NCBI GenBank assembly: GCA_964402035.1
Contig: CAYOAM010000003.1
Coordinates: forward strand, 162,657-226,656
Length of the DNA stretch: 64,000 bases
Source: an uncultured Candidatus Saccharibacteria bacterium
GTDB lineage: Bacteria > Patescibacteriota > Minisyncoccia > Phycocordibacterales > UBA918
Direction: 5' to 3'
In this document: piece by piece, positions 21,479 to 33,737 of the stretch
Layout of the letters: the number at the start of each line of letters is the position of its first letter
Numbering within the stretch: the stretch's first letter is position 1
Made by a program: the position numbers and the translations under genes
The notes under the pieces: generated by a model
Database searches by the model: none
Seen by the model: only the letters and a program-made list of their open reading frames with translations
Told to the model about the DNA's origin: nothing

Positions 21479-22423
21479 ATGATTGCCCGCGTCTTCTCGG
21501 CACAGCCAGCGGTTCAAGGAGGACATGTGGTCACGATCGAAACAGACCTCGCGAGAGGTCTGTATTCGTTTACGGTCGTCGGCCTCCCGGACAAAGCCGT
21601 CGAAGAAGCGCGCGATCGCTTGAGCGCCGCTATAAAGAATTCCGGTTTTGAATCTCCCAAAAGCAAAAATCACAAAATTATTATTTCATTGGCGCCTGCA
21701 GATTTGCGCAAAGAAGGGCCGCTCTTTGATCTTCCGATGGCCGTGGGGTACTTGATCGCCGCACACGACATACAAGCATCGGTTGCAGACACGTTAATAA
21801 TCGGTGAACTTGCGCTCGATGGCACCATACGTGGCGTGCGTGGCGCATTGCCGATTGTTCAGGTAGCAAAGAATGCAGGGTTCAAAACGGTCATCGTACC
21901 AAAAGAAAATGCGCTCGAAGCAGCACTCGTGCCTGAGATTGAAATCATTGCAGCCGGCACCCTCCTTGATGTCGTACGACACCTTGATCACACAAGGGAA
22001 GATCATCAACTACTCACTCCAGAGCCTCACACAGACATTATTCCAACGTGGAGCGAGAGCACTATATATCTTGAAGATATCAAAGGACAGGAAAGTGCAA
22101 AGAGGGGACTCTTGATTGCCGCAGCAGGACGACACAACAGCATCATGATCGGTCCACCCGGCACGGGGAAAACGATGCTCGCGCGCGCATTTCAAAGTAT
22201 GTTGCCACCGCTCTCTATAGAAGAAGCGCTCGAAGTCACCGCGATACATTCAATAGCTGGCACGCGCGACGAACCGGTGATAACACTCCCTCCTTTTCGT
22301 GCACCACACCACACAGCTTCACACACTGCGCTCGTGGGTGGCGGTATGCATCCGCGACCTGGGGAAGTCACCCTCGCACATCGGGGCGTACTTTTCTTAA
22401 AGTCAGTCCCACAAAACGTTTAG
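21479..22423 (+). pseudogene. comM: comM (YifB/Mg-chelatase-like AAA+ ATPase) 5' fragment, interrupted at the Walker-B 'GVLFL' by an inserted element
   Basis: N-terminal Lon-protease-like domain ('LPDKAVEEARDRL') and Walker A 'GPPGTGKTM'. The ORF ends 'LAHRGVLFL|KSVPQNV*'. The expected continuation 'DEFPEF...' resumes at 33138. Confidence 0.85.
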
Positions 22424-22621
22424 TCTTTCTAGAAAAGGTGCTTCTCTTAATATTAAGTAGCGAATCTTTTTTGAGGTGATTTATACATTCAGTGTAATCA
22501 GTAGGTAACAGTTGGTAAAATAAGTCACATGTTAAATTGTAGGACACACTTTATGAAAACAGTCCTTCAATAATTTATTGAACCAAATCGATTTTTCGCC
22601 AAAAAATGCTATATTTAGGCG

Positions 22622-23551
22622 ATGGATGACATCATAAACAGATCGATTTTAAAGAATAAAGGTAAGCTTTTGTCATACTATAGAGAGCAGGCAGCAGAGC
22701 TTATAAAAGAACTCAGAAGAGTTTACTCTGACAGCGAATATCGAAAACGAGCCGTTGCTGTAAATAATGGTCTTACAAATTTGAGAAAATCTCTTATTTC
22801 TAATTTATTGGAAAAAGCGGAGACCGAGTCTTGGTCTGCTGAGGAGGTATTGTCTGGAGTACTACTGGTGACATATACCAACTATGTAGTAATGATGGAA
22901 TCCAGAAATGATGTTTGGCCGTATGAGTATATGGCTTTTGCTCGTAGAATTGGTGAGTTGTGGGAACCATTCTGTCAGTTATGTTGGGTACATCCCGTAA
23001 AGGCTGGCATTTCATACATTGAACCTCCTGTGTATTCACATGTTAAAAATCAGCTTTTAGACAATATCAAATCTTACGTTAATGACCTAAAGCTGGAAAA
23101 GGAACAAAAGGATGTTTTGTTAAATCATTATGAAACTATCTCTGCACTGGTTAGTTCTGGTGAAATAAATCTTGAGCTTGATTTACACTTTAAATCAGGC
23201 GGGAAAAAATATGTCGTTGATTTTAAAAGTGGCTTTAGTTCTAACGAGAAAGGTAACACCAATCGACTATTACTTGTTGCAAATATCTACAAATCCCTAA
23301 ACGAGGGATACAATTGCCTACTTTTTGTAAGGTCAAACGAAGAAATGAACAATCATTATCTTCAAACACTTAAAAAGTCTGGTCTATGGACAGTTTACTG
23401 TGGAGAAGAAACCTATAAAATAGTAAGTACATACACGGGTTTTGACCTAGCGTCGTGGATGAAAAAAAATATTAACTGGGCTGAAGACTTCGATGAGAAA
23501 ATGTATGCACATTTAAAGCAAAATCAATTGCTACAGTATTTAGAATGGTAG
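22622..23551 (+). CDS. Putative PD-(D/E)xK nuclease (candidate restriction endonuclease)
   Basis: 'ELDLHF...YVVDFKSG' fits a D...(D/E)xK catalytic core. Its 3' end overlaps the start of the methyltransferase gene by 7 nt. Confidence 0.4.
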   Translation: MDDIINRSILKNKGKLLSYYREQAAELIKELRRVYSDSEYRKRAVAVNNGLTNLRKSLISNLLEKAETESWSAEEVLSGVLLVTYTNYVVMMESRNDVWPYEYMAFARRIGELWEPFCQLCWVHPVKAGISYIEPPVYSHVKNQLLDNIKSYVNDLKLEKEQKDVLLNHYETISALVSSGEINLELDLHFKSGGKKYVVDFKSGFSSNEKGNTNRLLLVANIYKSLNEGYNCLLFVRSNEEMNNHYLQTLKKSGLWTVYCGEETYKIVSTYTGFDLASWMKKNINWAEDFDEKMYAHLKQNQLLQYLEW

Positions 23552-25044
23552 ATAAAATTATTCAAGGAAAAAAACGTACTCATAGACAATACGCTTCATA
23601 CTATACAGATTCTGAACCAATCTTGTCTTACATGGTACAAAAACTTAACGTCGCCGAAGGCGATGCAATTTTCGAACCTTGTGCTGGTGACGGTGCCTTT
23701 ATAGAAAAAATCTTTTCAAAAAATTCAAGTGATATTTCGATTCACGCTGTTGACCTAAACCCCATTGCTGTCAATAATCTGAAAGAAAGATTTTCTTCAG
23801 CGAACATACTAGTGGAACAGGTTGATACCTTGCTCGACCGCTCTGTGTTGACTAAAAAGTATTCAAAAATAATTGGCAATCCACCATACGGAGCTTGGCA
23901 AGATTTATCAAAAAGAGATGAATTAAAAAAAATATATGGAGGTTACGTAAAAGAAACGTACACTCTCTTCTTACAGAAGTGCATTGATTTGCTTGAAGAA
24001 AATGGAAAGCTGGTATTTATTATCCCAGATACTTTTCTTGCATTACATATGCATAAGGGAACCAGAGCGAAGATTCTAACCAAAACACGAGTCGAAGAAA
24101 TCCTGTTAATACCATCAAATTTCTTTCCTGGGGTTAATTTTGGTTATGCAAACCTCTGCATAATTACACTTGTTAAAAGTGAATCTGTGGCAGGTAATAC
24201 TATAAAGATTGCCTCGGTTAGAGACTCTGTTGAAAAGTTAACAACGCTTGCAAGTGGAGACTATTCTGAGTGTCATTCTTTGGAATCTCTTTTGCAAGAT
24301 GACGTTTTAAACTCAGAAAATCTTTCGTTTTTTATTGGAAGCAACGAATCATCAAGAAGCTTAATGAAAGAGGATGTTCTCAAACTTGGAGACATAGCGG
24401 ATTGTGTTACCGGTTTCTATTCAGGGGACAATAAGAAATACATCAGGGTTCTAAATAAGGACATTAAGAGGTCGAATGGCTACTCAATAGTAGATAGTAA
24501 AGAAGTCGAATATACCCATTTTCCAGCTGACATTTTAAAACAAGGATTGACGAAAAAAAGCTATATTCCGTACTTAAAAAATGCGATTGGTACTTTTTCA
24601 ATTGAGACCCAATGGTTCATTCAGTGGGACAAAAACACAGTTCAGGAATACAAAAAAGACAAACGAGCTCGATTCCAAAATTCTGAATTTTATTTCAAGG
24701 AAGGTATAGGAGTACCAATGATTAAAAGCAGTAATACACACGCAGTATTGTTAGAGAAAAGGTTGTTTGACCAGTCCGTTGTTGGGGTCTTCCCCAAAGA
24801 TTTGAAACATAGAGATTATCTGCTAGCTTTCCTCAACTCAAAAACTTGCAGTAAGTTACTAAACATTATTAATCATACGGCTAATAATTCCGCAAACTAT
24901 CTCAAAAAACTCCCTATCATCGTCAATGACGAGGGTGTAAAAGTGGTCAATAAAATAATGTCGAAATACTTTGAAAGTAAGGACAAAACCAAAGCTCTTG
25001 CAGAAATCGATGAATTCTTTACTAAACTCTACAATTTGGACTAA
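23545..25044 (+). CDS. N6-adenine DNA methyltransferase (gamma-class, NPPY motif)
   Basis: SAM-binding 'FEPCAGDGAF' (motif I) precedes 'IIGNPPYG' (motif IV), followed by a long C-terminal target-recognition region. Confidence 0.75.
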   Translation: MVDKIIQGKKRTHRQYASYYTDSEPILSYMVQKLNVAEGDAIFEPCAGDGAFIEKIFSKNSSDISIHAVDLNPIAVNNLKERFSSANILVEQVDTLLDRSVLTKKYSKIIGNPPYGAWQDLSKRDELKKIYGGYVKETYTLFLQKCIDLLEENGKLVFIIPDTFLALHMHKGTRAKILTKTRVEEILLIPSNFFPGVNFGYANLCIITLVKSESVAGNTIKIASVRDSVEKLTTLASGDYSECHSLESLLQDDVLNSENLSFFIGSNESSRSLMKEDVLKLGDIADCVTGFYSGDNKKYIRVLNKDIKRSNGYSIVDSKEVEYTHFPADILKQGLTKKSYIPYLKNAIGTFSIETQWFIQWDKNTVQEYKKDKRARFQNSEFYFKEGIGVPMIKSSNTHAVLLEKRLFDQSVVGVFPKDLKHRDYLLAFLNSKTCSKLLNIINHTANNSANYLKKLPIIVNDEGVKVVNKIMSKYFESKDKTKALAEIDEFFTKLYNLD

Positions 25045-25270
25045 CGAGGAGTCTATTTACTTTTCTTCAAAAAGAAATACTATTTACTGACAACTTAATA
25101 TAAATGACCTAACCCTCAGTCGTAAGATTGAGGTATGGTCGAAAACCGTTGAAGACAAACACCCCATTATCAGGGCGCGTCTTCAACGTTATAAGGGGAA
25201 ACTCTTATAGGACTTCGGTCCACCTGGTAGTGGGTTTTTTGTATCTCGTTACCAGAATCTTACTTATTTA

Positions 25271-25864
25271 ATGAATAGATTTATGAACGAGAAAACTAAC
25301 GTTTTGGATAAAAAAATACCATGGTGGGCTGGACTAGCATTTTTTATATTTGTTATAAGTACGTTACTGTACGGACTTTTAGGAGGCTTTTCTACAGCTT
25401 CGAAAGTTGAAGAAGTTTCAAAGGAAGAAGTTAAAACTGACCAGCCAGCCAAAGAACCAATAATACAAATTGCGACCTTGTACAACATTCCAATGTCGAA
25501 GTTGTCTGAGCAATTTACTGCCCCACTGAACAGTGCGGGGAATCTTGTTATAGATACCGATGAGTACAAGCTACTGATTGAAAGTAAAAACGGCGTGAAC
25601 TCAGACTATGTGGAAGTGCAACTCAAAGCTCTTGGTAGTTGTGCTAAATCTGGTGTACCCCGAAACAGTGATGAGGCACTGCAACTAGTAGGGTTGAAAC
25701 CGCAGCTAAAGGGTAACCCGACCAATCCTCCTGCTGGGATAGCGAATGGTGCGATTGAGTACTGTGACTATCCGAGTGATAAATTCTCCGTCGGTGCTTC
25801 ATGTATGTATGACGGTGGATATTACGATGTCAGCCTGTCTCCACGTACATATTGTGGCAACTAG
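25271..25864 (+). CDS. Hypothetical secreted/membrane-anchored Cys-containing protein
   Basis: N-terminal TM/signal segment (WWAGLAFFIFVISTLLYGLLGG). The C-terminal half contains 4 Cys. Confidence 0.45.
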   Translation: MNRFMNEKTNVLDKKIPWWAGLAFFIFVISTLLYGLLGGFSTASKVEEVSKEEVKTDQPAKEPIIQIATLYNIPMSKLSEQFTAPLNSAGNLVIDTDEYKLLIESKNGVNSDYVEVQLKALGSCAKSGVPRNSDEALQLVGLKPQLKGNPTNPPAGIANGAIEYCDYPSDKFSVGASCMYDGGYYDVSLSPRTYCGN

Positions 25865-26526
25865 GGTACGTTTAGTTGTCCAGAAAACGTTAGCTACGGC
25901 ATTCGATAGCGGAAAGGCGAGGTAATATACCAACCTCTGTAAAAGTTATTCACAGTCATTGAGTTACAGAACAATAATATTTTTTAGTCAAAAACCCTTA
26001 TTTAAAGGGGTTTTTTGCTTATAGCTTCTTCTATATACTTCCAGCTCCTTATAGATTTTTATAGATAATTACATCTTCTTCTACGTGTACGTCAAGACCA
26101 TCTAGGTGTAGTGTTCGGAGTAACAATGACTAATCAGCCAGAACAGAACATTGAGCATGGTCCCGCAGGTGTCGAATGGACACTTCTCTTTGGGAAGCTA
26201 CTGACCGATAAGTCAGCGTCGAAATTATCAAATAAATCTGAAACCGACACCGGCAATCAGATTGCAATCAAAACAAACAATGAAAACACTTATAACGAAG
26301 CAAACGAATTTAACCAAGTCACCTATAACTCTCGCTGACCTCGTGAACACTGGCTACGCTCATATCAGCACTGACATTAACAAAGCAAGAGAGAATATCG
26401 AACGATATGCAACTACCGCAGTTCGAGTGATTGCACCAAAGAATTGTAGAGATATAACAATCGACTTATCAAAACCTGACAAGCCGAGAGTGAGATACAA
26501 GATTACCAAGAATATGACGAGCTAGC

Positions 26527-27228
26527 ATGGCTAGAAAGAAAGTTCAGCAAAACGAAAGATTTCCTGGCTTTCCAAAAAGCATCAATCGTGGATTCTTTCG
26601 GTATCCAACAATTCTTGAAAAATACTGGTGTGACCTCGAAGGTTCTGAACAAAAGGTTTTAGACTACATCCTTCGTCAGACTAAGGGTTGGGGCAAGAAT
26701 TTTGACAAAATCAGCTTGTCTCAGTTTGCGAAAGGAAACGGAAAAAATACAAAGGGTGCAGGTATTAGTGAAACGCAGGCAGCTGCTGCGCTTAAAGCGC
26801 TGGAAGTGAAAGGCTACATAACAGTCGAACGACGAGCTAGAAAGACGAATGTTATTCACCTCAAGTATGACGAGACTGTCAGTGATAGTCCGAAGTGTAG
26901 CGATGAGATTCGAGAACTCATCATGCAATTTGAACCAGTCGCTAACCACTTAGTAAAGGACTACTTGGAAGATGAGCGTGAAATATCTGCTCTTGAAGAG
27001 CTTGTCACCTATTACGGCTACCATAAGGTGAGAGATTGTATCTCGGTACTCAGGGATTCAAACCCAGAGCAGTACATGCCTACGATAATCTCACCCAGAG
27101 ACCTCAGAACAAAGATGCCTAGTCTATTATCGGCTATTGCAACTATGCAGATAGAGCACGATACGTTTTGGCAGGTCAATCTAGATAATGATAGACGTTT
27201 CGTCTCGAAAATTGAAAAAATACTTTGA
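26527..27228 (+). CDS. Winged-helix protein, possible replication initiator / DnaD-like
   Basis: 'QKVLDYILRQTKGW...ISLSQFAKGNG...ISETQAAAALKALEVKGYITVER' resembles the N-terminal wHTH of phage/plasmid replication initiators. Confidence 0.35.
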   Translation: MARKKVQQNERFPGFPKSINRGFFRYPTILEKYWCDLEGSEQKVLDYILRQTKGWGKNFDKISLSQFAKGNGKNTKGAGISETQAAAALKALEVKGYITVERRARKTNVIHLKYDETVSDSPKCSDEIRELIMQFEPVANHLVKDYLEDEREISALEELVTYYGYHKVRDCISVLRDSNPEQYMPTIISPRDLRTKMPSLLSAIATMQIEHDTFWQVNLDNDRRFVSKIEKIL

Positions 27229-27493
27229 GGTGGTTAGGTGATTGGTACAAAAGTTGGATATCTGTATCACAACTGATACCAGGAAAAAGTGAAACTGTAC
27301 CAATCTGTTATCAGACAATAGATAGATAGGTATCTACAAAATTGTATATATTCACACTCACTTGAAAGTGAGTGTAGATAATTCTGGAAATAAGATTATT
27401 TAACGACCAGTAATTAAATAGGGAGTCCCTACCTCGCTTGTTAACAGTCACACTACACAACATATATACAAAGTTGTAAAGATATGGAATTAT

Positions 27494-27560
27494 ATAACTG
27501 AGAAACCGTTGTTTTAAGCCAAATTTCCGGCTGTGGCAACTACCCCTTCTCAGTTATATG
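27494..27560. repeat. 13-14-bp inverted repeats (TATATAACTGAGAA ... TTCTCAGTTATAT) separated by ~40 bp, upstream of the recombinase genes
   Basis: Read directly from the sequence. Candidate recombinase binding or crossover site. Confidence 0.5.
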
Positions 27561-27708
27561 AACCATATTGACGACATTAAAGACTACTTAATCGCAGATG
27601 AGATTCAGCGCATTCAGTCGTTGTCACATGAACAATTGGTTTGTGAACTGATTGAAGTGAAAACACGAGATATAGAGCTGGGCAAAATCACCATTAACAC
27701 TAACGTAC

Positions 27709-28128
27709 ATGGAAACTAAGAAAACACTAATTATTAACTCAAAGAGCTTGAACGGGTTGCGCTACTTCGGCATAACTAAAAAGTGTATCGAACATTGCCA
27801 GACACAAAAATGGGCTATCGAACCCGATAACATTCATAGCGAAATAAACCTCACTCCTTACGTAGAGTATGAAGGGGTACCTGAGAACGAACCAGTCTAC
27901 ATGATTGAAAAAAATAGAGTTGCGTGTCTGCTCACTTATTCAATCGAAAGCCTTGGTCTATCACTACGTGAACTGCTAGAACTCATGCATTTACTTGAAA
28001 AGCATGAGGTGAGGCTCGTCTCAGTAACTGAGAAACTAGAACCCGACACTCATTCGGGAAGACTGAGGATTCACCTAGCCGCAATAACCGCTGAGTTTCG
28101 ACGTGCGGATAATGCTAACTATCTATGA
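27709..28128 (+). CDS. Resolvase-like catalytic-domain remnant lacking the Ser nucleophile region
   Basis: 'LSLRELLELMHLLEKHEVRLVSVTEKLEPDTHSGRLRIHLAAITAEFRRAD' matches the C-terminal half of a serine-recombinase catalytic domain. There is no 'RVSTxxQ' motif. It overlaps the start of the next gene by 4 nt. Confidence 0.5.
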   Translation: METKKTLIINSKSLNGLRYFGITKKCIEHCQTQKWAIEPDNIHSEINLTPYVEYEGVPENEPVYMIEKNRVACLLTYSIESLGLSLRELLELMHLLEKHEVRLVSVTEKLEPDTHSGRLRIHLAAITAEFRRADNANYL

Positions 28129-29882
28129 ATGACCCAGCTACTGTAAAGAACAAACGTGTTGCTATATACCTCCGTGTCTCCACTGACGAACAGGCTAAGG
28201 AGGGTCACTACGGTTTGAAAGTTCAAGAAGATAGACTTCGACAGTTTTGTGCCAGCCAAGGTTACGAACTCAGTGAAGAACATGTTTACCGTGACGAGGG
28301 CTACTCTGGGACTCTTAAAGTTGAAATGCGACCTGGTCTATCTGCCCTGTATGAAGCAGCAAGGGAAAAACAGTTTGACACGTTGATTGTCTACAAACTC
28401 GATAGACTATTTCGTAATCAAACCAAGCTACTAGTATCACTTGAACAGCTCATAGATTATGGCGTAGGTTTCCAATCAGCAACGCAGTCGTTCGATACGG
28501 ATACATCAACAGGTCGTCTCATGATGCAAATTCTGGGTTCCTTTGCTGAACACGAGCGAGAACTGATTCGTGAACGAATGACAGCCGGTAAACTTCGCGC
28601 AGCTAAAGAGGGTAAATGGGTCACTGGTGTTCCGCCTTACGGATATCGAGTTGACGAAAAAACACAAACACTCATTCCACAAGCTGAAGAAGCTGAGGTT
28701 GTCCAGAAATTCTACGAGTGGTTGGTTTATGAAAAATGCTCTCTGCGTGAAATCACTAAGCGTGCAATAGAACAAAACCTACCGACCCCGAAGCACAAGA
28801 ACGCGAAGGGTAAGAATAGAGTTGGCGGAAAATGGTACAAACGAACCATTAATCGAATTCTGGTCAATGAAGTTTATACAGGTCAGTTTTACTACAACAA
28901 GTACAAACGACCATTCCAATACCTGAATGCTGTACTGGACGAACAACATCAACGACCACAAGAAGACCATATTCTTATCACTGTTCCAGCAATCATTTCA
29001 TCCGATTTGTTTGAGAAGTCGATACAGCAACTGCAAGACAATCGTCGATTCCAAAAACGAAACGAGAAGCGTGTCTACCTGTTTGCTGGACTACTCTATT
29101 CAGGAATATCGGGACGTAAGTTGCAAAGTGGTTATCAAACACCCAAAAAGGATAAGACAACCCCGATTCTAGGGAAGTACTACCATGTATACGTTCCAGA
29201 CATAGACAGGAAACCTACTGATTGCGATAAAAATAACCCTGAAGGGCAATGTGCTGAAAGTCGATTGATTCCTATTTGGGATACGTTGGTCGCGATACTG
29301 AGCGACCCGAAGAACGTAATACCGCAACTGGAAGAGTACACCTTTAAGACCAGCAACGAGGTCAAAGTGAAGAAGGAGTTAGTGCTACTCGAAAAGCAAT
29401 TCGAGACACTTAGAGTAAAGAAGCAACGTGTTCAAGAAGTGTATCTGGAAGCACAAATGGATAAGGACGACTACAACAGTCGGATGAAGCAAGTGAGAAA
29501 GGACGAAAAGGATATAGTCATCCAGAAACAGAAACTGTCACAACTACTCCTAAAACAAGATGAACAAAAAGACCGAGATAAAATCATTCAATCACTCTAC
29601 GGCAGACTAAAAGCCAGAATCAGTAACGTGACCTACGAGGAAAAGCAATACATTCTTCGTTTGTTTGTCGAAAAGATTACTTTACACCACAAGAAAGGAT
29701 ATGCGGAGGTAGCATTCAAGTTCCCACTAAACACGAATGTTCCAACCACTGCACCTGCCAGCATGACAGAGGGTAGGCATATGCGACTGGTACTGCATGT
29801 GAAGATTTATTCTGAAAAAGAACGACGAATTCAAATCTTTCAAAGTGTTCCAGAGATGTGTAAAAAACCAGTAGCAGTATAG
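28125..29882 (+). CDS. Large serine recombinase (integrase)
   Basis: N-terminal 'VAIYLRVSTDEQ' resolvase catalytic domain, a recombinase domain, and a C-terminal coiled-coil/zinc-ribbon-like region. 585 aa. Confidence 0.85.
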   Translation: MNDPATVKNKRVAIYLRVSTDEQAKEGHYGLKVQEDRLRQFCASQGYELSEEHVYRDEGYSGTLKVEMRPGLSALYEAAREKQFDTLIVYKLDRLFRNQTKLLVSLEQLIDYGVGFQSATQSFDTDTSTGRLMMQILGSFAEHERELIRERMTAGKLRAAKEGKWVTGVPPYGYRVDEKTQTLIPQAEEAEVVQKFYEWLVYEKCSLREITKRAIEQNLPTPKHKNAKGKNRVGGKWYKRTINRILVNEVYTGQFYYNKYKRPFQYLNAVLDEQHQRPQEDHILITVPAIISSDLFEKSIQQLQDNRRFQKRNEKRVYLFAGLLYSGISGRKLQSGYQTPKKDKTTPILGKYYHVYVPDIDRKPTDCDKNNPEGQCAESRLIPIWDTLVAILSDPKNVIPQLEEYTFKTSNEVKVKKELVLLEKQFETLRVKKQRVQEVYLEAQMDKDDYNSRMKQVRKDEKDIVIQKQKLSQLLLKQDEQKDRDKIIQSLYGRLKARISNVTYEEKQYILRLFVEKITLHHKKGYAEVAFKFPLNTNVPTTAPASMTEGRHMRLVLHVKIYSEKERRIQIFQSVPEMCKKPVAV

Positions 29883-29886
29883 GCCG

Positions 29887-30507
29887 TTAATCTTGCTTAT
29901 TAAGTGAGTGGATGACGGCCTTTGCTATACCTACAATTTCGAAGGAATCTGATTTTTTAATTTTCAGGTCTTTATATTCAGGATTGCTAGATCGAAGTAT
30001 TATTTCATTACTCTCCTTAATAACCTTTTTTATTTTAGGTTCACCGTTGTGTAGTACTAACGAAAGTTGGCCTGGAGAATCTAAGGTTTCATCCTTCTGA
30101 AACAGAACTAAGTCACCAGAGTTAATGTTTGGAGACATTGAGTCACCTTTTGCTAACACCGCAAAGATAGAGCTGGGGTCAGAGATATTAAACATCTTTG
30201 TAGATATAGAAATCTTTTCTTCGAGGTTAGACTCACTTACCAAGTCACTAGCATGACCGCAGGAAGCCATTCCATACCTACTGATGGTAACGACATCTTC
30301 TACAGGGCTTTTCAAAACCTCAAAAGTTGAGTTGTCGCCTCTTCGGAGGTAGCCCTTATTTTCTAATTGACGTAAATGGTGAGCCACATTCTGTGCGCTA
30401 CCAAGGTCAGCCTCTTTTGCAATTTGCCAAAGACTCATCTCAGACAAGGCTTCTTCATTTTCAATCAAAAAATTCAGCAGCTTTTGCTGGCTGGGGTGTA
30501 ATTGCAT
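29887..30507 (-). CDS. LexA/CI-like repressor (S24 peptidase family)
   Basis: N-terminal LexA-type winged helix ('SQQKLLNFLIENEEALSEMSLWQIAKEADL...VAHHLRQLENKGYL') and a C-terminal S24 domain ('GDSMSPNINSGDLVLF', Lys in 'KIKKV'). Confidence 0.75.
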   Translation of the reverse strand: MQLHPSQQKLLNFLIENEEALSEMSLWQIAKEADLGSAQNVAHHLRQLENKGYLRRGDNSTFEVLKSPVEDVVTISRYGMASCGHASDLVSESNLEEKISISTKMFNISDPSSIFAVLAKGDSMSPNINSGDLVLFQKDETLDSPGQLSLVLHNGEPKIKKVIKESNEIILRSSNPEYKDLKIKKSDSFEIVGIAKAVIHSLNKQD

Positions 30508-30744
30508 AACAAGAGCAGTATATATGACAGGGAGACATTTGTACACACTTTATTAACAGGAAACGAAACATTTGACGTTTTCCACCGCTACCGTACAATA
30601 GTACGAAGAAAGCCAGCTTGCGCTGACTTTCGAACGAATATTATTCCTCTTCAGGTTAGTGTAACACCACTTTCCTGAAGGTCCGACCGACTGGTCTTAC
30701 TTTACATAGTATTCCAGTTGGGCGGGCTAATCAAGTATTGGCCT

Positions 30745-30963
30745 ATGCGTAAGTATTACGTAAACCACAACGAACAGCCGGAGGGAGAACATGAGGTACA
30801 TGACTGGAATGCGAATTGCTCGCACCCACCACTCATGCAAAATCGTGTTGACCTCGGTTATCACACCACGTGCCGTGGTGCAATCTTTGAGGCACAAAAA
30901 CTTTATCCGCACTCACATGTAAACGGTTGCGCTTACTGTGTTCCAGACTGTAACTCTGACTAG
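30745..30963 (+). CDS. Small Cys/His-rich protein (possible Zn-binding), divergent from the repressor
   Basis: ~72 aa with C/H spaced as H..H..C..H...C...H.H..C..C..C. Confidence 0.35.
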   Translation: MRKYYVNHNEQPEGEHEVHDWNANCSHPPLMQNRVDLGYHTTCRGAIFEAQKLYPHSHVNGCAYCVPDCNSD

Positions 30964-30965
30964 TT

Positions 30966-31169
30966 ATGGCTCAATACGAACGCAACTCCGGCAAACGCTG
31001 GACAGTGAAAGAGGAAAAGCAACTCCGTTCTCTAGCAAAGGACAACACACCGACACGTGTCATTGGGTTGAAACTTGGCCGCCCTGTAGGGGGAGTGCAA
31101 GCTAAAGCACAAGAACTGGACGTGAGTCTGAAACCAACCAATCAGTCTCCGTACAATCGAAAGAAGTAG
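30966..31169 (+). CDS. Small basic hypothetical protein
   Basis: 67-aa ORF immediately following. Confidence 0.3.
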   Translation: MAQYERNSGKRWTVKEEKQLRSLAKDNTPTRVIGLKLGRPVGGVQAKAQELDVSLKPTNQSPYNRKK

Positions 31170-31374
31170 CAGAACCTTTACAGAGCATAATAGAATCCCT
31201 GCTTGTCAGGGGTTTTGTTATCATTGTGGGACAACTTTCCTAATAGTTGTCCTCCAGTTTATAAGATTTTGAACCCCAAATACTGCCATCTATCGACTTT
31301 TCCGTCATTGGTGGTATTTTTGTTTTACGTGCTATGACGCAAAAACGCCAAGTACCTAAGGAAAAAATCCAAAT

Positions 31375-32586
31375 ATGTGGGTTATCGTTAATGGAACATA
31401 CTCAACCGAGATTGAGGATAGCGTTGTTGAACGTGTTCTTAACCTATACCCAGAAGAGCGGCTTCTGAAACGTAAAGTATTTCAAAGTGCTTTTGCAACA
31501 GGTTCTATCAAACTGTCTGACCTAAAAGATGAATGCGATAAACTACTCATCCCATGGCAGATGTTCCTACTGGATACAGAAAACCACAAGAAGCAAATTG
31601 AACATATTGAAAAGACCAGAGCTGATAAGATTTCAGCTCGACTTCTGGCTAAACGAAAGGGTTCTGGTGATGTTACTTCAAAACGCATTGTAGACCGACT
31701 TATTCGCTTGCAAGGTTTTGTTTCAGCAACAACCTCACTACCGAACAATCCCTATTGCGATTCGCTGAAGAGCAAGAGTGTAAAAGTGGCCGCAAAGCAT
31801 GTAATCGACTATTTCAAAATTGACCAAAACTGGTTCTGGTCAACTCGTGGGAAAGGAACAGCGTTGTCAAAACTAATTTCTTTGGTAGAAGCAAAAAATA
31901 TCAATGTGTGTCAGGGTGTTCTCCAGAATAAAATGCTACCCCATCACTCTGTTGTAGCCGGTGATGTATATAAAAATACCAGCGGTTTTTCTATTAAGGA
32001 CGACAAGGTACCATTTGTATTTTTGCCGAGTGAAATCAACCCTGATGAGGTTGAGAGTCGTCAAATTTTTACACTTATATATCTCTTGGTAATTATTGGT
32101 CTTGGTAAGTATGACTACTACCTAGAGAAGGATTTTAGTACCAAAATGGTAGGAACAGACCGAATCTCTCGCAGAATTTTCGATATTACAACAGAAATTC
32201 TAATCCCCGAATCGGAAACTGATAAGTTGCGAAGTAAGACAATCACGGTATCTATGCGTGACGAGTTGGCGAGTAAGTTTAAAGTCTCACCATCAGCTCT
32301 TATTACCACTTTGCGAATCAGAAAAATAATTACTAAACCAGAATACAACGCATTAATGCCAGAGAAATATAAGCCTGGTACAAGAAAGTCTGGTCCAATG
32401 AATACTCAAAAAATTTCAACTTCAGTACAGAAATTCTGTGGACGAATTGCCGTAACTCACGTCAATGAAGGAATCAGAAAAGGTGGAAGGGGTGGAGGGG
32501 TTGAAAGTATTCAAGCGCAGTACATGCTTTTTGGTGCTGTAAACAAACCGCACTACCATGACTACCGTAAACAAATGGGACTATGA
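31375..32586 (+). CDS. Hypothetical protein (403 aa), partner of the downstream PIN-like gene
   Basis: Clean ORF that overlaps the next gene by 4 nt (ATGA). Confidence 0.45.
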   Translation: MWVIVNGTYSTEIEDSVVERVLNLYPEERLLKRKVFQSAFATGSIKLSDLKDECDKLLIPWQMFLLDTENHKKQIEHIEKTRADKISARLLAKRKGSGDVTSKRIVDRLIRLQGFVSATTSLPNNPYCDSLKSKSVKVAAKHVIDYFKIDQNWFWSTRGKGTALSKLISLVEAKNINVCQGVLQNKMLPHHSVVAGDVYKNTSGFSIKDDKVPFVFLPSEINPDEVESRQIFTLIYLLVIIGLGKYDYYLEKDFSTKMVGTDRISRRIFDITTEILIPESETDKLRSKTITVSMRDELASKFKVSPSALITTLRIRKIITKPEYNALMPEKYKPGTRKSGPMNTQKISTSVQKFCGRIAVTHVNEGIRKGGRGGGVESIQAQYMLFGAVNKPHYHDYRKQMGL

Positions 32587-33023
32587 ATCTAATTGACACT
32601 GTTGGTATCAATCACATTTTTGAAAAATCTCTTAAAATGAGTGAGGTTTATTATCTTGCTCCAGACATTTCTGAGGAAGTCGAGATGACAGAAATGATTC
32701 ACAGTAAACGCATCCCTGATGAGGTCAGATACGCAGCAGAGGTTGATGAATTTGATGAGTCAGTATATTTGCACCATTACAAAATTGCACTGAACTCCTA
32801 TAAAAAACGGTCATTCTATAACATGAAAGGATTTGGTGATGTATCAATTATTGCTACAGTGAAAACAATTCTAGATGGATATAAAAAACAGGATACTGAA
32901 CAGCTTTTTTCAACAAAAGAACCAGTCATTGTTTATACTGGTGATACAAACCTTACAGAAGTCTTAAATGCTGAATTTGATAGCTCGGACGTGCAGGTAA
33001 AAGGGATTGCCGACATTAAATAG
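32583..33023 (+). CDS. PIN-like domain protein
   Basis: 'MNLIDTVGINHIF' N-terminus and acidic residues spaced as in PIN domains (D5, E~35, D~96 'FGDVSI', D~121 'TGDTNL'). Confidence 0.4.
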   Translation: MNLIDTVGINHIFEKSLKMSEVYYLAPDISEEVEMTEMIHSKRIPDEVRYAAEVDEFDESVYLHHYKIALNSYKKRSFYNMKGFGDVSIIATVKTILDGYKKQDTEQLFSTKEPVIVYTGDTNLTEVLNAEFDSSDVQVKGIADIK

Positions 33024-33134
33024 ACGATTCCAACTGGGTGACTGTTGTTGCAGTATCTGTTCCTCAGTTTTGGCGCACTGAGTTGAGTAACAGTTATTGT
33101 AGAAGGTGTCCTACAAAATTGAGGGACAATAACA

Positions 33135-33737
33135 TTGGATGAATTTCCTGAATTTGACCGAAGATCAATTGATACGTTGCGCCAACCGCTTGAAGATAAA
33201 GTAGTTTCAATATCGCGCGTACATGGACAGGCAACATTTCCAGCAGACTTCACCCTCGTTGCCGCTATGAACCCCCATCGTGGTACCCACGATGGCAGTG
33301 ACCCGAGTGACAGCATGCTCGATGCATACAAAAAGAAAATTTCAGGGCCCATCATGGACCGCATCGACCTTTGGCTCACTGTTTCACATATACCGTATGA
33401 GGAACTCGCACAAAATGAGAAGCATATCGATCAAAATCGTGACGAAACCAAACGCGCACGAGAACAGGTACAGGATGCACGTCTCAAACAACGGCAACGC
33501 TACGGAGTTGCAACAAAAACAAACGGTGTGCTCTCTGCGCGAGATATTGAGATACATGTGCGCTTGGCGAAAGAAACAGAAACACTACTCATTGAATCTG
33601 CCAAAAAACTAGCACTCTCTCCGCGCGGCTACCACAGACTCATAAAAGTCGCCCGCACTATCGCAGATTTAGAGGGCGCAGATGATATTAAAACCACGCA
33701 CGTCCTCGAGGCGCTCCAATACCGCGCTCGGATATGA
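33135..33737 (+). pseudogene. comM: comM 3' fragment (Mg-chelatase C-terminal domain)
   Basis: It begins '(L)DEFPEFDRRSIDTLRQPLEDKVVSISR...', the direct continuation of ComM after Walker B. Confidence 0.85.

Follow-up and report, generated by a model that had tools for sequence, protein, structure and literature searches.

What would a recombinase domain stripped of its catalytic residues be doing directly in front of an integrase gene? The question is raised by a 64,000-nucleotide stretch of DNA (the window, from whose first letter all coordinates are counted) from an uncultured Candidatus Saccharibacteria bacterium (GenBank assembly GCA_964402035.1, contig CAYOAM010000003.1, positions 162,657 to 226,656 of the forward strand). 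An island inserted here encodes a large serine recombinase (LSR) of 585 aa, the integrase of the element (28125..29882, plus strand), and a 139-aa open reading frame (ORF; 27709..28128, plus strand) runs into the start of that gene. A first-pass annotation had seen in the ORF part of a resolvase domain, perhaps a decayed duplicate, perhaps an accessory subunit or recombination directionality factor (RDF), and in a pair of inverted repeats upstream of it a possible recombination site. On the basis of Pfam, of AlphaFold2 (AF2) modeling with Foldseek, and of hhalign, we describe the ORF product as a catalytically dead, stand-alone serine-recombinase catalytic domain, or pseudo-recombinase. It is very probable that it arose as a duplicate of the LSR catalytic domain; the fuller reading, in which this copy serves as a dispensable modulator of the integrase, is the one we favor, and we hold it tentatively.

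The resolvase homology of the ORF is upheld by Pfam, in which the 139-aa sequence matches PF00239 (Resolvase) with E=5.4e-9 and 36.7 bits (cut-off 23.3), residues 66-134 aligning with profile positions 59-127. The first-pass annotation had confined this homology to the C-terminal half of the catalytic domain, a restriction that does not survive structural and profile comparison. The AF2 model displays the order β1-αA-β2-αB-β3-αD-β4-αE, and a Foldseek search with it retrieves the N-terminal (catalytic) domain of the TP901-1 integrase (3bvp) with E=7e-6 over ~135 columns, together with other serine recombinases. There are also profile matches to the solved catalytic domains of Gin, TP901-1 and gamma-delta, and the profile-profile comparison proposed at the outset aligns residues 27-138 of the dead-ORF family with LSR N-terminal domains at 98.6% probability in hhalign. 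BLASTP of the ORF against its own LSR returned nothing (E=14), so that the relationship is visible only to profile and fold methods.

The residues that make a serine recombinase an enzyme have been lost (numbering here follows gamma-delta). The nucleophilic serine motif, R-x-S-T-x-x-Q, is gone, as had been noticed from the first: the alignment places LIINSKSLNG of the window where LSRs read IYLRVSTDEQ. The D67-R68..R71 motif has likewise disappeared, with YSIESLGL in place of YKLDRLFR, and the equivalents of R8, S10, D67, R68 and R71, along with further conserved positions, are all substituted. Two of the homologous dead ORFs in related elements (L006 and L035) read LILNQK(H/Y) at the place of the serine motif, with no serine, and the R71 equivalent is leucine in all four dead homologues. 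The missing motif is not to be found upstream, where the frame preceding 27709 is full of stops and offers no in-frame extension; the alignment puts the β-1 strand at its proper place, with its residues substituted. At the other end, the ORF stops 23 residues into helix α-E and has no DNA-binding domain, nor is there space for one, because the LSR begins at the ORF stop codon and the codons that follow belong to the LSR in another frame. The conserved G-R...AE..R at the start of α-E is still present. Judged by its sequence, the 139-aa product is a member of the resolvase fold family that fails every enzymatic criterion and cannot be an enzyme.

The adjacent gene has the full equipment of an LSR, with Resolvase (PF00239, E=7e-40) and Recombinase (PF07508, E=5e-19) domains, in an element flanked by the two parts of a split comM gene (VLF|..|DEFPEF). 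A protein search yielded 647 relatives at E<=1e-20; among the matches listed, three carry a source name, all of them Patescibacteria, Paceibacterota or Parcubacteria metagenome-assembled genomes, and every LSR relative examined sits in an element that splits comM. The zinc-ribbon domain PF13408 gave no Pfam match in the LSR. At residues ~325-380 (29100-29270) the sequence YSGISG occupies the expected position of the first cysteine pair and only two cysteines are left (DCDKNNPEGQC); the LSR family consensus has the same pattern, and the zinc ribbon may be degenerate.

The ORF is the middle member of a chain of three overlapping ORFs. The first-pass annotation correctly had its stop overlapping the integrase start as ATGA (TGA at 28126-28128, ATG at 28125). 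It had overlooked the first member of the chain, a 53-aa ORF (MNHIDDIKDYLIADEIQRI...; 27558..27719, plus strand), which would be the first gene of the integrase operon and whose stop overlaps the start of the 139-aa ORF by 11 nt. Programmed frameshifting that would fuse these ORFs was considered and rejected, a slippery heptamer being present at neither overlap. In 11 of the 12 related elements compared, the 53-aa ORF or its counterpart lies immediately upstream of the LSR or of the middle ORF, with an amino acid identity of 67-82% and a proportion of nonsynonymous differences (pN) of 0.10-0.20; it has no match in Pfam or PHROGs. Between the copies of the window, L006 and L035, its proportion of synonymous differences (pS, 0.39-0.55) is lower than that of the LSRs for the same pairs (0.63-0.71), which hints at an additional constraint on the nucleotide sequence. 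The 53-aa ORF is a candidate regulator or RDF.

How widespread the arrangement is can be judged from these 12 distinct elements, which are inserted in comM in every case where the contig is long enough. The slot between small ORF and LSR holds a dead homologue in three (L006, 143 aa; L035, 148 aa; L037, 153 aa), a copy with intact motifs in one (L004/L005) and nothing in eight (L007/8, L009=L024, L036, L038, L039, L040 and L041), where a 51-60-aa ORF of the MNHIDDIKDYLIADEIQRI... type itself overlaps the LSR start. The pairing with an integrase is thus conserved in part of the family and absent from the remainder; the ORF is not confined to the window, and the LSR evidently functions without it, given that eight elements lack it. 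L037 has another gene in the place of the small upstream ORF and still keeps a dead domain next to its LSR, which ties the domain to the LSR and not to the small ORF. When the single 139-aa sequence was run in a word-indexed search against 5.8 billion proteins, it retrieved only itself, and the related-locus search found few close relatives in metagenome and genome collections. Several further candidates were set aside: L016, L018, L019, L029 and L030 (40-45%, N-terminal domain only) are ordinary small resolvases with a helix-turn-helix (HTH), and L033 is a broken LSR. As far as these sequences tell, the 139-aa type of ORF is rare and dispensable.

The intact copy offers a view of how the middle ORF may have come about. 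It is a 160-aa, catalytic-domain-only ORF in the same slot (L004 7538-8020; L005 3706-4188), in which R-x-S and D-R..R are preserved, and it shares 54% (protein) and 67% (DNA) identity with the LSR N-terminal domain and only ~22% with the dead copies. From its sequence it looks like an earlier or an independently maintained stage; it could be a recent duplicate, or a domain that is potentially active though devoid of DNA-binding domains. Dead and intact types share exactly the same 11-nt overlap with the small ORF (window, L006, L035 and L004), and the METK at the N terminus of the middle ORF resembles the METITN of the L038 LSR; these two likenesses point to duplication of the 5' end of an LSR gene, start codon included. 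Of the decayed duplicate originally proposed, the duplicate origin accordingly stands, since an intact copy occupies the same slot, whereas the open frames and pN below pS (see below) argue against ongoing decay. The LSRs are themselves mosaic: identities of the catalytic domain (aa 1-165) and of the remainder disagree among the window, L004, L006, L036, L037 and L041, the window LSR sharing 90% and 79%, respectively, with L004, 72% and 91% with L036, and 54% and 88% with L037, while L037 and L041 have in common a distinct N-terminal domain (93%). Elements seem to have swapped modules of the catalytic domain near α-E, and such exchange could be a source of tandem domain ORFs.

The substitution pattern bears on whether the middle ORF still encodes anything. 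Middle ORFs have pN of 0.32-0.54, below their pS of 0.67-0.84; for the LSRs pN is 0.07-0.18 and pS is 0.60-0.85, meaning that synonymous sites are saturated. Where dS could be computed, dN/dS is ~0.4-0.5 (0.41-0.46) for the middle ORFs versus 0.04-0.14 for the LSRs, estimates whose precision is limited by saturation, few sequences and mosaic histories. The frame is open in four diverged lineages, whereas shuffled middle ORFs remain open in <=1.5e-4 of trials per locus, and the other two frames hold 4-22 stops. The residues that are invariant lie at the start of α-E (T114, G117, A128, E129 and R132) and in the hydrophobic core (S78, L82 and L84). Taken together with the retained fold, the open frames and the deficit of pN relative to pS favor a protein that is translated and weakly constrained by purifying selection over a decaying pseudogene or a simple spacer. 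That the 139-aa ORF is expressed and under selection we regard as likely.

Upstream of the chain lies the inverted repeat, which consists of 13 perfect base pairs, ATATAACTGAGAA at 27492-27504 and TTCTCAGTTATAT at 27547-27559, extended to 14 pairs by a T-G pair. The 13-14-bp length first assigned to it therefore holds; the distance of 70 bp does not, for 149 bp separate the end of the repeat from the 139-aa ORF downstream, and the 53-aa ORF fills the gap. The ATG of the 53-aa ORF falls inside the right arm, and the repeat forms the base of a predicted leader hairpin of ~70 nt (27491..27560, plus strand). Markov shuffles predict ~0.17 perfect 13-bp repeats per 64-kb window, and the RNA has a minimum free energy of -29.7 kcal/mol (z=-6.45). 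Each of the 10 related loci that contain the region is predicted to form the hairpin, and in each the small ORF has its AUG base-paired; z ranges from -2.7 to -7 in eight of them, and the structure is weak in the other two, L036 and L039. At stem positions 11 and 13 both partners change, giving G-C for A-T; there are also several G-T wobble pairs, and RNAalifold finds 14 pairs, two with double changes, in what is a small sample; an 18-nt deletion in L007 takes away only the tip. The wobble pairs make sense only in RNA, and the repeat is best read as an RNA hairpin. Rfam returned no family, its match to the S4-Fusobacteriales leader being at chance level (E=0.8; 20.7 bits against a cut-off of 48.8).

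The hairpin is preceded by a control region (27457..27493, plus strand) that is near-invariant across the 10 loci. This contains a palindrome, ACAAC-N11-GTTGT (27457-27477), and a promoter-like site, TATACA-17-(TGg)AATTAT (27465-27493), with the family pattern T(T/A)TACA-17-TGn-AAyTAT, which ends within the left arm of the repeat. The equivalent in L024 (TTTACA-17-AATTAT with an upstream TG) was called as a promoter; a sigma-70 scan of the window called no plus-strand promoter at the conserved site, where the window copy scores 8/12 against a threshold of 9. From the sequence we infer promoter and operator roles for the region. The palindrome overlaps the predicted -35 of the integrase operon and is kept in 9 of 10 loci, the ACAAC-N11-GTTGT of L039 being shifted by one base; a partly complementary copy lies at 27335-27351. 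It is a candidate operator. Since the predicted promoter would start transcription inside the left arm, native transcripts would, if that promoter is real, be without the outer left arm, and the AUG would be sequestered only in read-through transcripts. The hairpin may thus occlude the AUG either in all transcripts or in those reading in from outside.

The sites at which the island recombined lie elsewhere, at its junctions with comM. The N-terminal part of comM stops at ...HRGVLF (22396) and the C-terminal part restarts with DEFPEF (33138). On the left, attL (22397..22418, plus strand) comprises the putative crossover TT at 22397-22398, placed by the end of the comM frame, and the element-side arm AAAGTCAGTCCCACAAAACG, whose GTCCC half-site is also found in the attL of L006. 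On the right, attR (33115..33136, plus strand) comprises the element-side arm AAAATTGAGGGACAATAACA and the putative TT at 33135-33136, placed by the comM restart; the attR arm AAAACTGTGGGACA is kept in eight relatives. TT is accordingly the crossover dinucleotide that we infer for the element. Joining the attR arm to the attL arm reconstructs attP as AAAATTGAGGGACAATAACA-TT-AAAGTCAGTCCCACAAAACG, with symmetric half-sites (GGGAC/GTCCC) that are kept in relatives. One suggestion, that the element provides a start codon for the C-terminal comM fragment, could be ruled out: the ATG/TTG belongs to the shared core and is a codon of the host.

These observations can be assembled into a mechanism whose steps differ in strength. 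The middle ORF would have been created when the 5'-most ~420-480 bp of the LSR gene, start codon and all, were duplicated in tandem or by unequal exchange. Ribosomes would probably pass from the 53-aa ORF through the dead domain to the LSR by way of the overlaps, to judge from the anatomy of the locus, and the leader hairpin probably limits translation of the operon by pairing the AUG of the first ORF. The dead domain would then bind the catalytic domain of the LSR through the α-E/catalytic-domain interface and tune recombination, most simply by damping it. Contact through α-E is suggested by where the conserved residues fall and by analogy with transposase regulators; heteromerization of the 139-aa protein with the LSR is the weakest step of the scheme and a doubtful one. 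We are more doubtful still of a specific version in which translational coupling delivers the dead paralogue in a fixed ratio and mixed dimers or tetramers with the LSR, formed via α-E, set activity or directionality; the intact copy of L004/L005 would then be a still-active precursor. Whatever the protein does must be dispensable, as most sister elements do without it.

A number of observations weigh against a modulator. The confidence of the AF2 model is moderate (pLDDT 66, pTM 0.61, with residues 36-59 below 50), and α-E is cut short, which could weaken a dimer contact. In eight of the 12 related elements the small ORF leads straight into the LSR. A profile built from the four dead ORFs found those four and nothing else in the 5.8 billion proteins, and exhaustive phmmer with the window ORF gave two full-length relatives and generic matches to the C-terminal half of resolvases, with no further full-length member. 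The dead ORFs also diverge far faster than the LSRs beside them (22-48% versus 71-89% identity), a comparison of rates limited by the mosaic nature of the LSRs, whose histories may differ from those of their middle ORFs. Finally, the transcription start, and with it the transcribed part of the hairpin, is a predicted one.

The chief competitor to the modulator is that the ORF is a relic kept only as a translational conduit, its frame held open to hand ribosomes at the ATGA to an LSR gene that would have no ribosome-binding site of its own. Overlaps at both ends without an obvious Shine-Dalgarno sequence before either ATG, a rare, patchy and dispensable distribution, very fast divergence with the loss of every catalytic residue, and the fact that the small ORF itself overlaps the LSR start where the middle ORF is missing would all suit such a role. 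It is a possibility to be taken seriously, yet on balance we think it unlikely, since selection on the frame alone predicts neutral amino acid change, and not the pN deficit described above; resolvase-specific core and α-E residues are invariant, and the family still aligns with LSR N-terminal domains at high hhalign probability and is predicted to adopt the resolvase fold. A conduit would, moreover, be unnecessary, because a simple deletion would restore the common overlap of small ORF and LSR. The proposal that the ORF is an RDF, binding the LSR and switching it to excision (attL x attR), is improbable. Its position beside the integrase gene, from which co-expression would follow, is in keeping with it, and RDFs have no conserved fold and are identified case by case (PMC12286644); on the other hand, known and predicted RDFs all bind DBD2 at the coiled-coil junction and not the catalytic domain, and none is a resolvase paralogue (PMC12286644). 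The eight elements without the ORF must still excise, and an RDF made in fixed ratio with the integrase would hinder integration. The 53-aa ORF, near-universal among the sister elements, is the better RDF candidate. Least probable of all, and largely refuted by the sequences, is a frameshifted or truncated pseudogene of a second integrase in the course of decay. Truncated LSR fragments are known, such as that of Paenibacillus (L033), in which a 134-aa N-terminal-domain fragment is followed by other frames. Here, by contrast, the upstream frame has many stops and β-1 is in place with substituted residues, no remnant of a DNA-binding domain can follow when the LSR begins at the stop codon, and four diverged copies keep length, frame and both overlaps.

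The remaining alternative concerns the inverted repeat, which might be a DNA site, either the attP/res core proposed in the first-pass annotation or a pair of operator half-sites for the repressor of the element. Its placement is typical of operators, the left arm overlapping the predicted -10 and the transcription start and the right arm overlapping the ATG, and the island does encode a LexA/S24-type repressor (29887-30546). The attP/res version is excluded by comparison with the element boundaries: the repeat, ATAACTGAGAA, lies 5.1 kb inside the element, away from the recombination junctions, whose arms (AAAATTGAGGGACA... and ...GTCCCACAAAA, with their GGGAC/GTCCC half-sites) share nothing with it. 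Several features speak against an operator. The arms, neither of them palindromic, are spaced 55 bp apart; a substitution on one side has its counterpart on the other, with some G-T wobbles that are meaningless in duplex DNA; the inner stems pair too, and the deletion in L007 costs the hairpin nothing but its tip; and the relatives examined, which retain the repeat, showed no S24 repressor gene among their called genes. A DNA site of either kind is very improbable.

With the pseudo-recombinase placed within its operon, the surrounding element can be described briefly. It is an AT-rich island of ~10.7 kb (GC 0.34-0.45 against ~0.47-0.53 in the flanks) that splits comM, a competence gene of the Mg-chelatase family, exactly at the Walker B motif. 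It contains a restriction-modification pair (22622-25044), a phage RepO-like gene (26527-27228), the repressor gene mentioned above, which is convergent to the LSR, and several unassigned genes. A tight hairpin, CACACTCACTT GA AAGTGAGTGT, lies at 27349-27380, 120 bp past the RepO-like gene, and has no T-run; it could be a terminator or an origin element. The LSR and repressor genes end 4 nt apart, and an inverted repeat, GGCCGT...ACGGCC (29883-29921), spans their junction; this may be a terminator common to both. The comM-targeting islands (window 22400-33137, L004, L006, L007 and L038-L041) share a core of rep, small ORF and LSR, and each member has its own cargo, which includes restriction-modification systems, a Shedu SduA_C gene, and PIN, SocA_Panacea, DUF4238, DUF6119 and ExoVII-large-subunit-like genes. 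They look like defense-cargo cassettes of Patescibacteria, and the window element and its 12 relatives form a family whose hosts probably belong to that group.

Large serine recombinases are leading tools for the insertion of large DNA into genomes, and the only natural protein regulators known for them are RDFs that bind the DBD2/coiled-coil region. If the modulator reading is true, a dead paralogue that acts on the catalytic domain would constitute a class of LSR regulator and a second, transferable control point, and prokaryotes would offer a clear example of a pseudoenzyme descended from the very enzyme it partners. Should the protein turn out to be inert, the island family, with its swappable catalytic-domain modules, conserved leader hairpin and conserved 51-60-aa upstream gene, would still be a compact model for work on how genes for integrases are remodeled and restrained.

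Set beside known systems, the module is, by its sequence, an LSR integration module to which a pseudo-recombinase gene has been added. The 139-aa product shares fold, order of secondary structure and the start of α-E with serine recombinases (PF00239; TP901-1 integrase, 3bvp), and differs from them in the loss of the nucleophilic serine, R8, D67, R68 and R71, in its short α-E, and in having no recombinase, zinc-ribbon or HTH DNA-binding domain. Literature searches aimed at inactive serine-recombinase paralogues turned up none described as sharing an operon with an active LSR, and a search for truncated or dominant-negative catalytic domains brought mostly unrelated papers. Poxvirus F16 is a homologue of serine recombinases that is predicted to be catalytically inactive (Senkevich, Koonin and Moss 2011, as cited in PMC4304020). 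Like the 139-aa ORF, it derives from a serine recombinase and has been retained after losing the catalytic residues; it is, however, a nucleolar protein of a eukaryotic virus with no partner recombinase, and the ORF is not a member of its family (Pox_F16, PF04708: E=0.1, 12.5 bits, cut-off 30). The RDFs of LSRs (SPbeta SprB, Bxb1 gp47 and phiC31 gp3; PMC12286644) are likewise small, element-encoded proteins, as a potential integrase binder should be, but they are not paralogues of the catalytic domain and are usually encoded outside the integrase operon. For the leader, a parallel is offered by IS10/Tn10, where RNA secondary structure gives protection from external promoters (Davis, Simons and Kleckner 1985, as cited in PMC13181058). 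Here, too, the downstream arm of a repeat covers the translation start of a recombinase operon and a predicted promoter lies in or beside the upstream arm; the window differs in being an integrative island with a serine integrase, in which the gated ORF is a 53-aa leader gene and not the recombinase, and in which the promoter is only predicted.

Comparable in organization are the regulators of transposases. Tn5 Inh and IS1 InsA/IS3 OrfA are truncated or upstream-ORF regulators, and truncated transposase derivatives inhibit their enzymes. In IS91, the upstream-ORF regulator Orf121 has a stop that overlaps the tnpA start (PMC13181058), just as the 139-aa ORF overlaps the LSR. In all of these a small protein, often derived from part of the enzyme, modulates or inhibits it, and the gene for this protein accompanies that of the recombinase or overlaps its start. 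Their partners, though, are DDE or HUH transposases, and the truncated ones keep the DNA-binding or multimerization part of an otherwise identical protein, whereas the 139-aa ORF is paired with a serine integrase and is a dead paralogue evolving separately from it.

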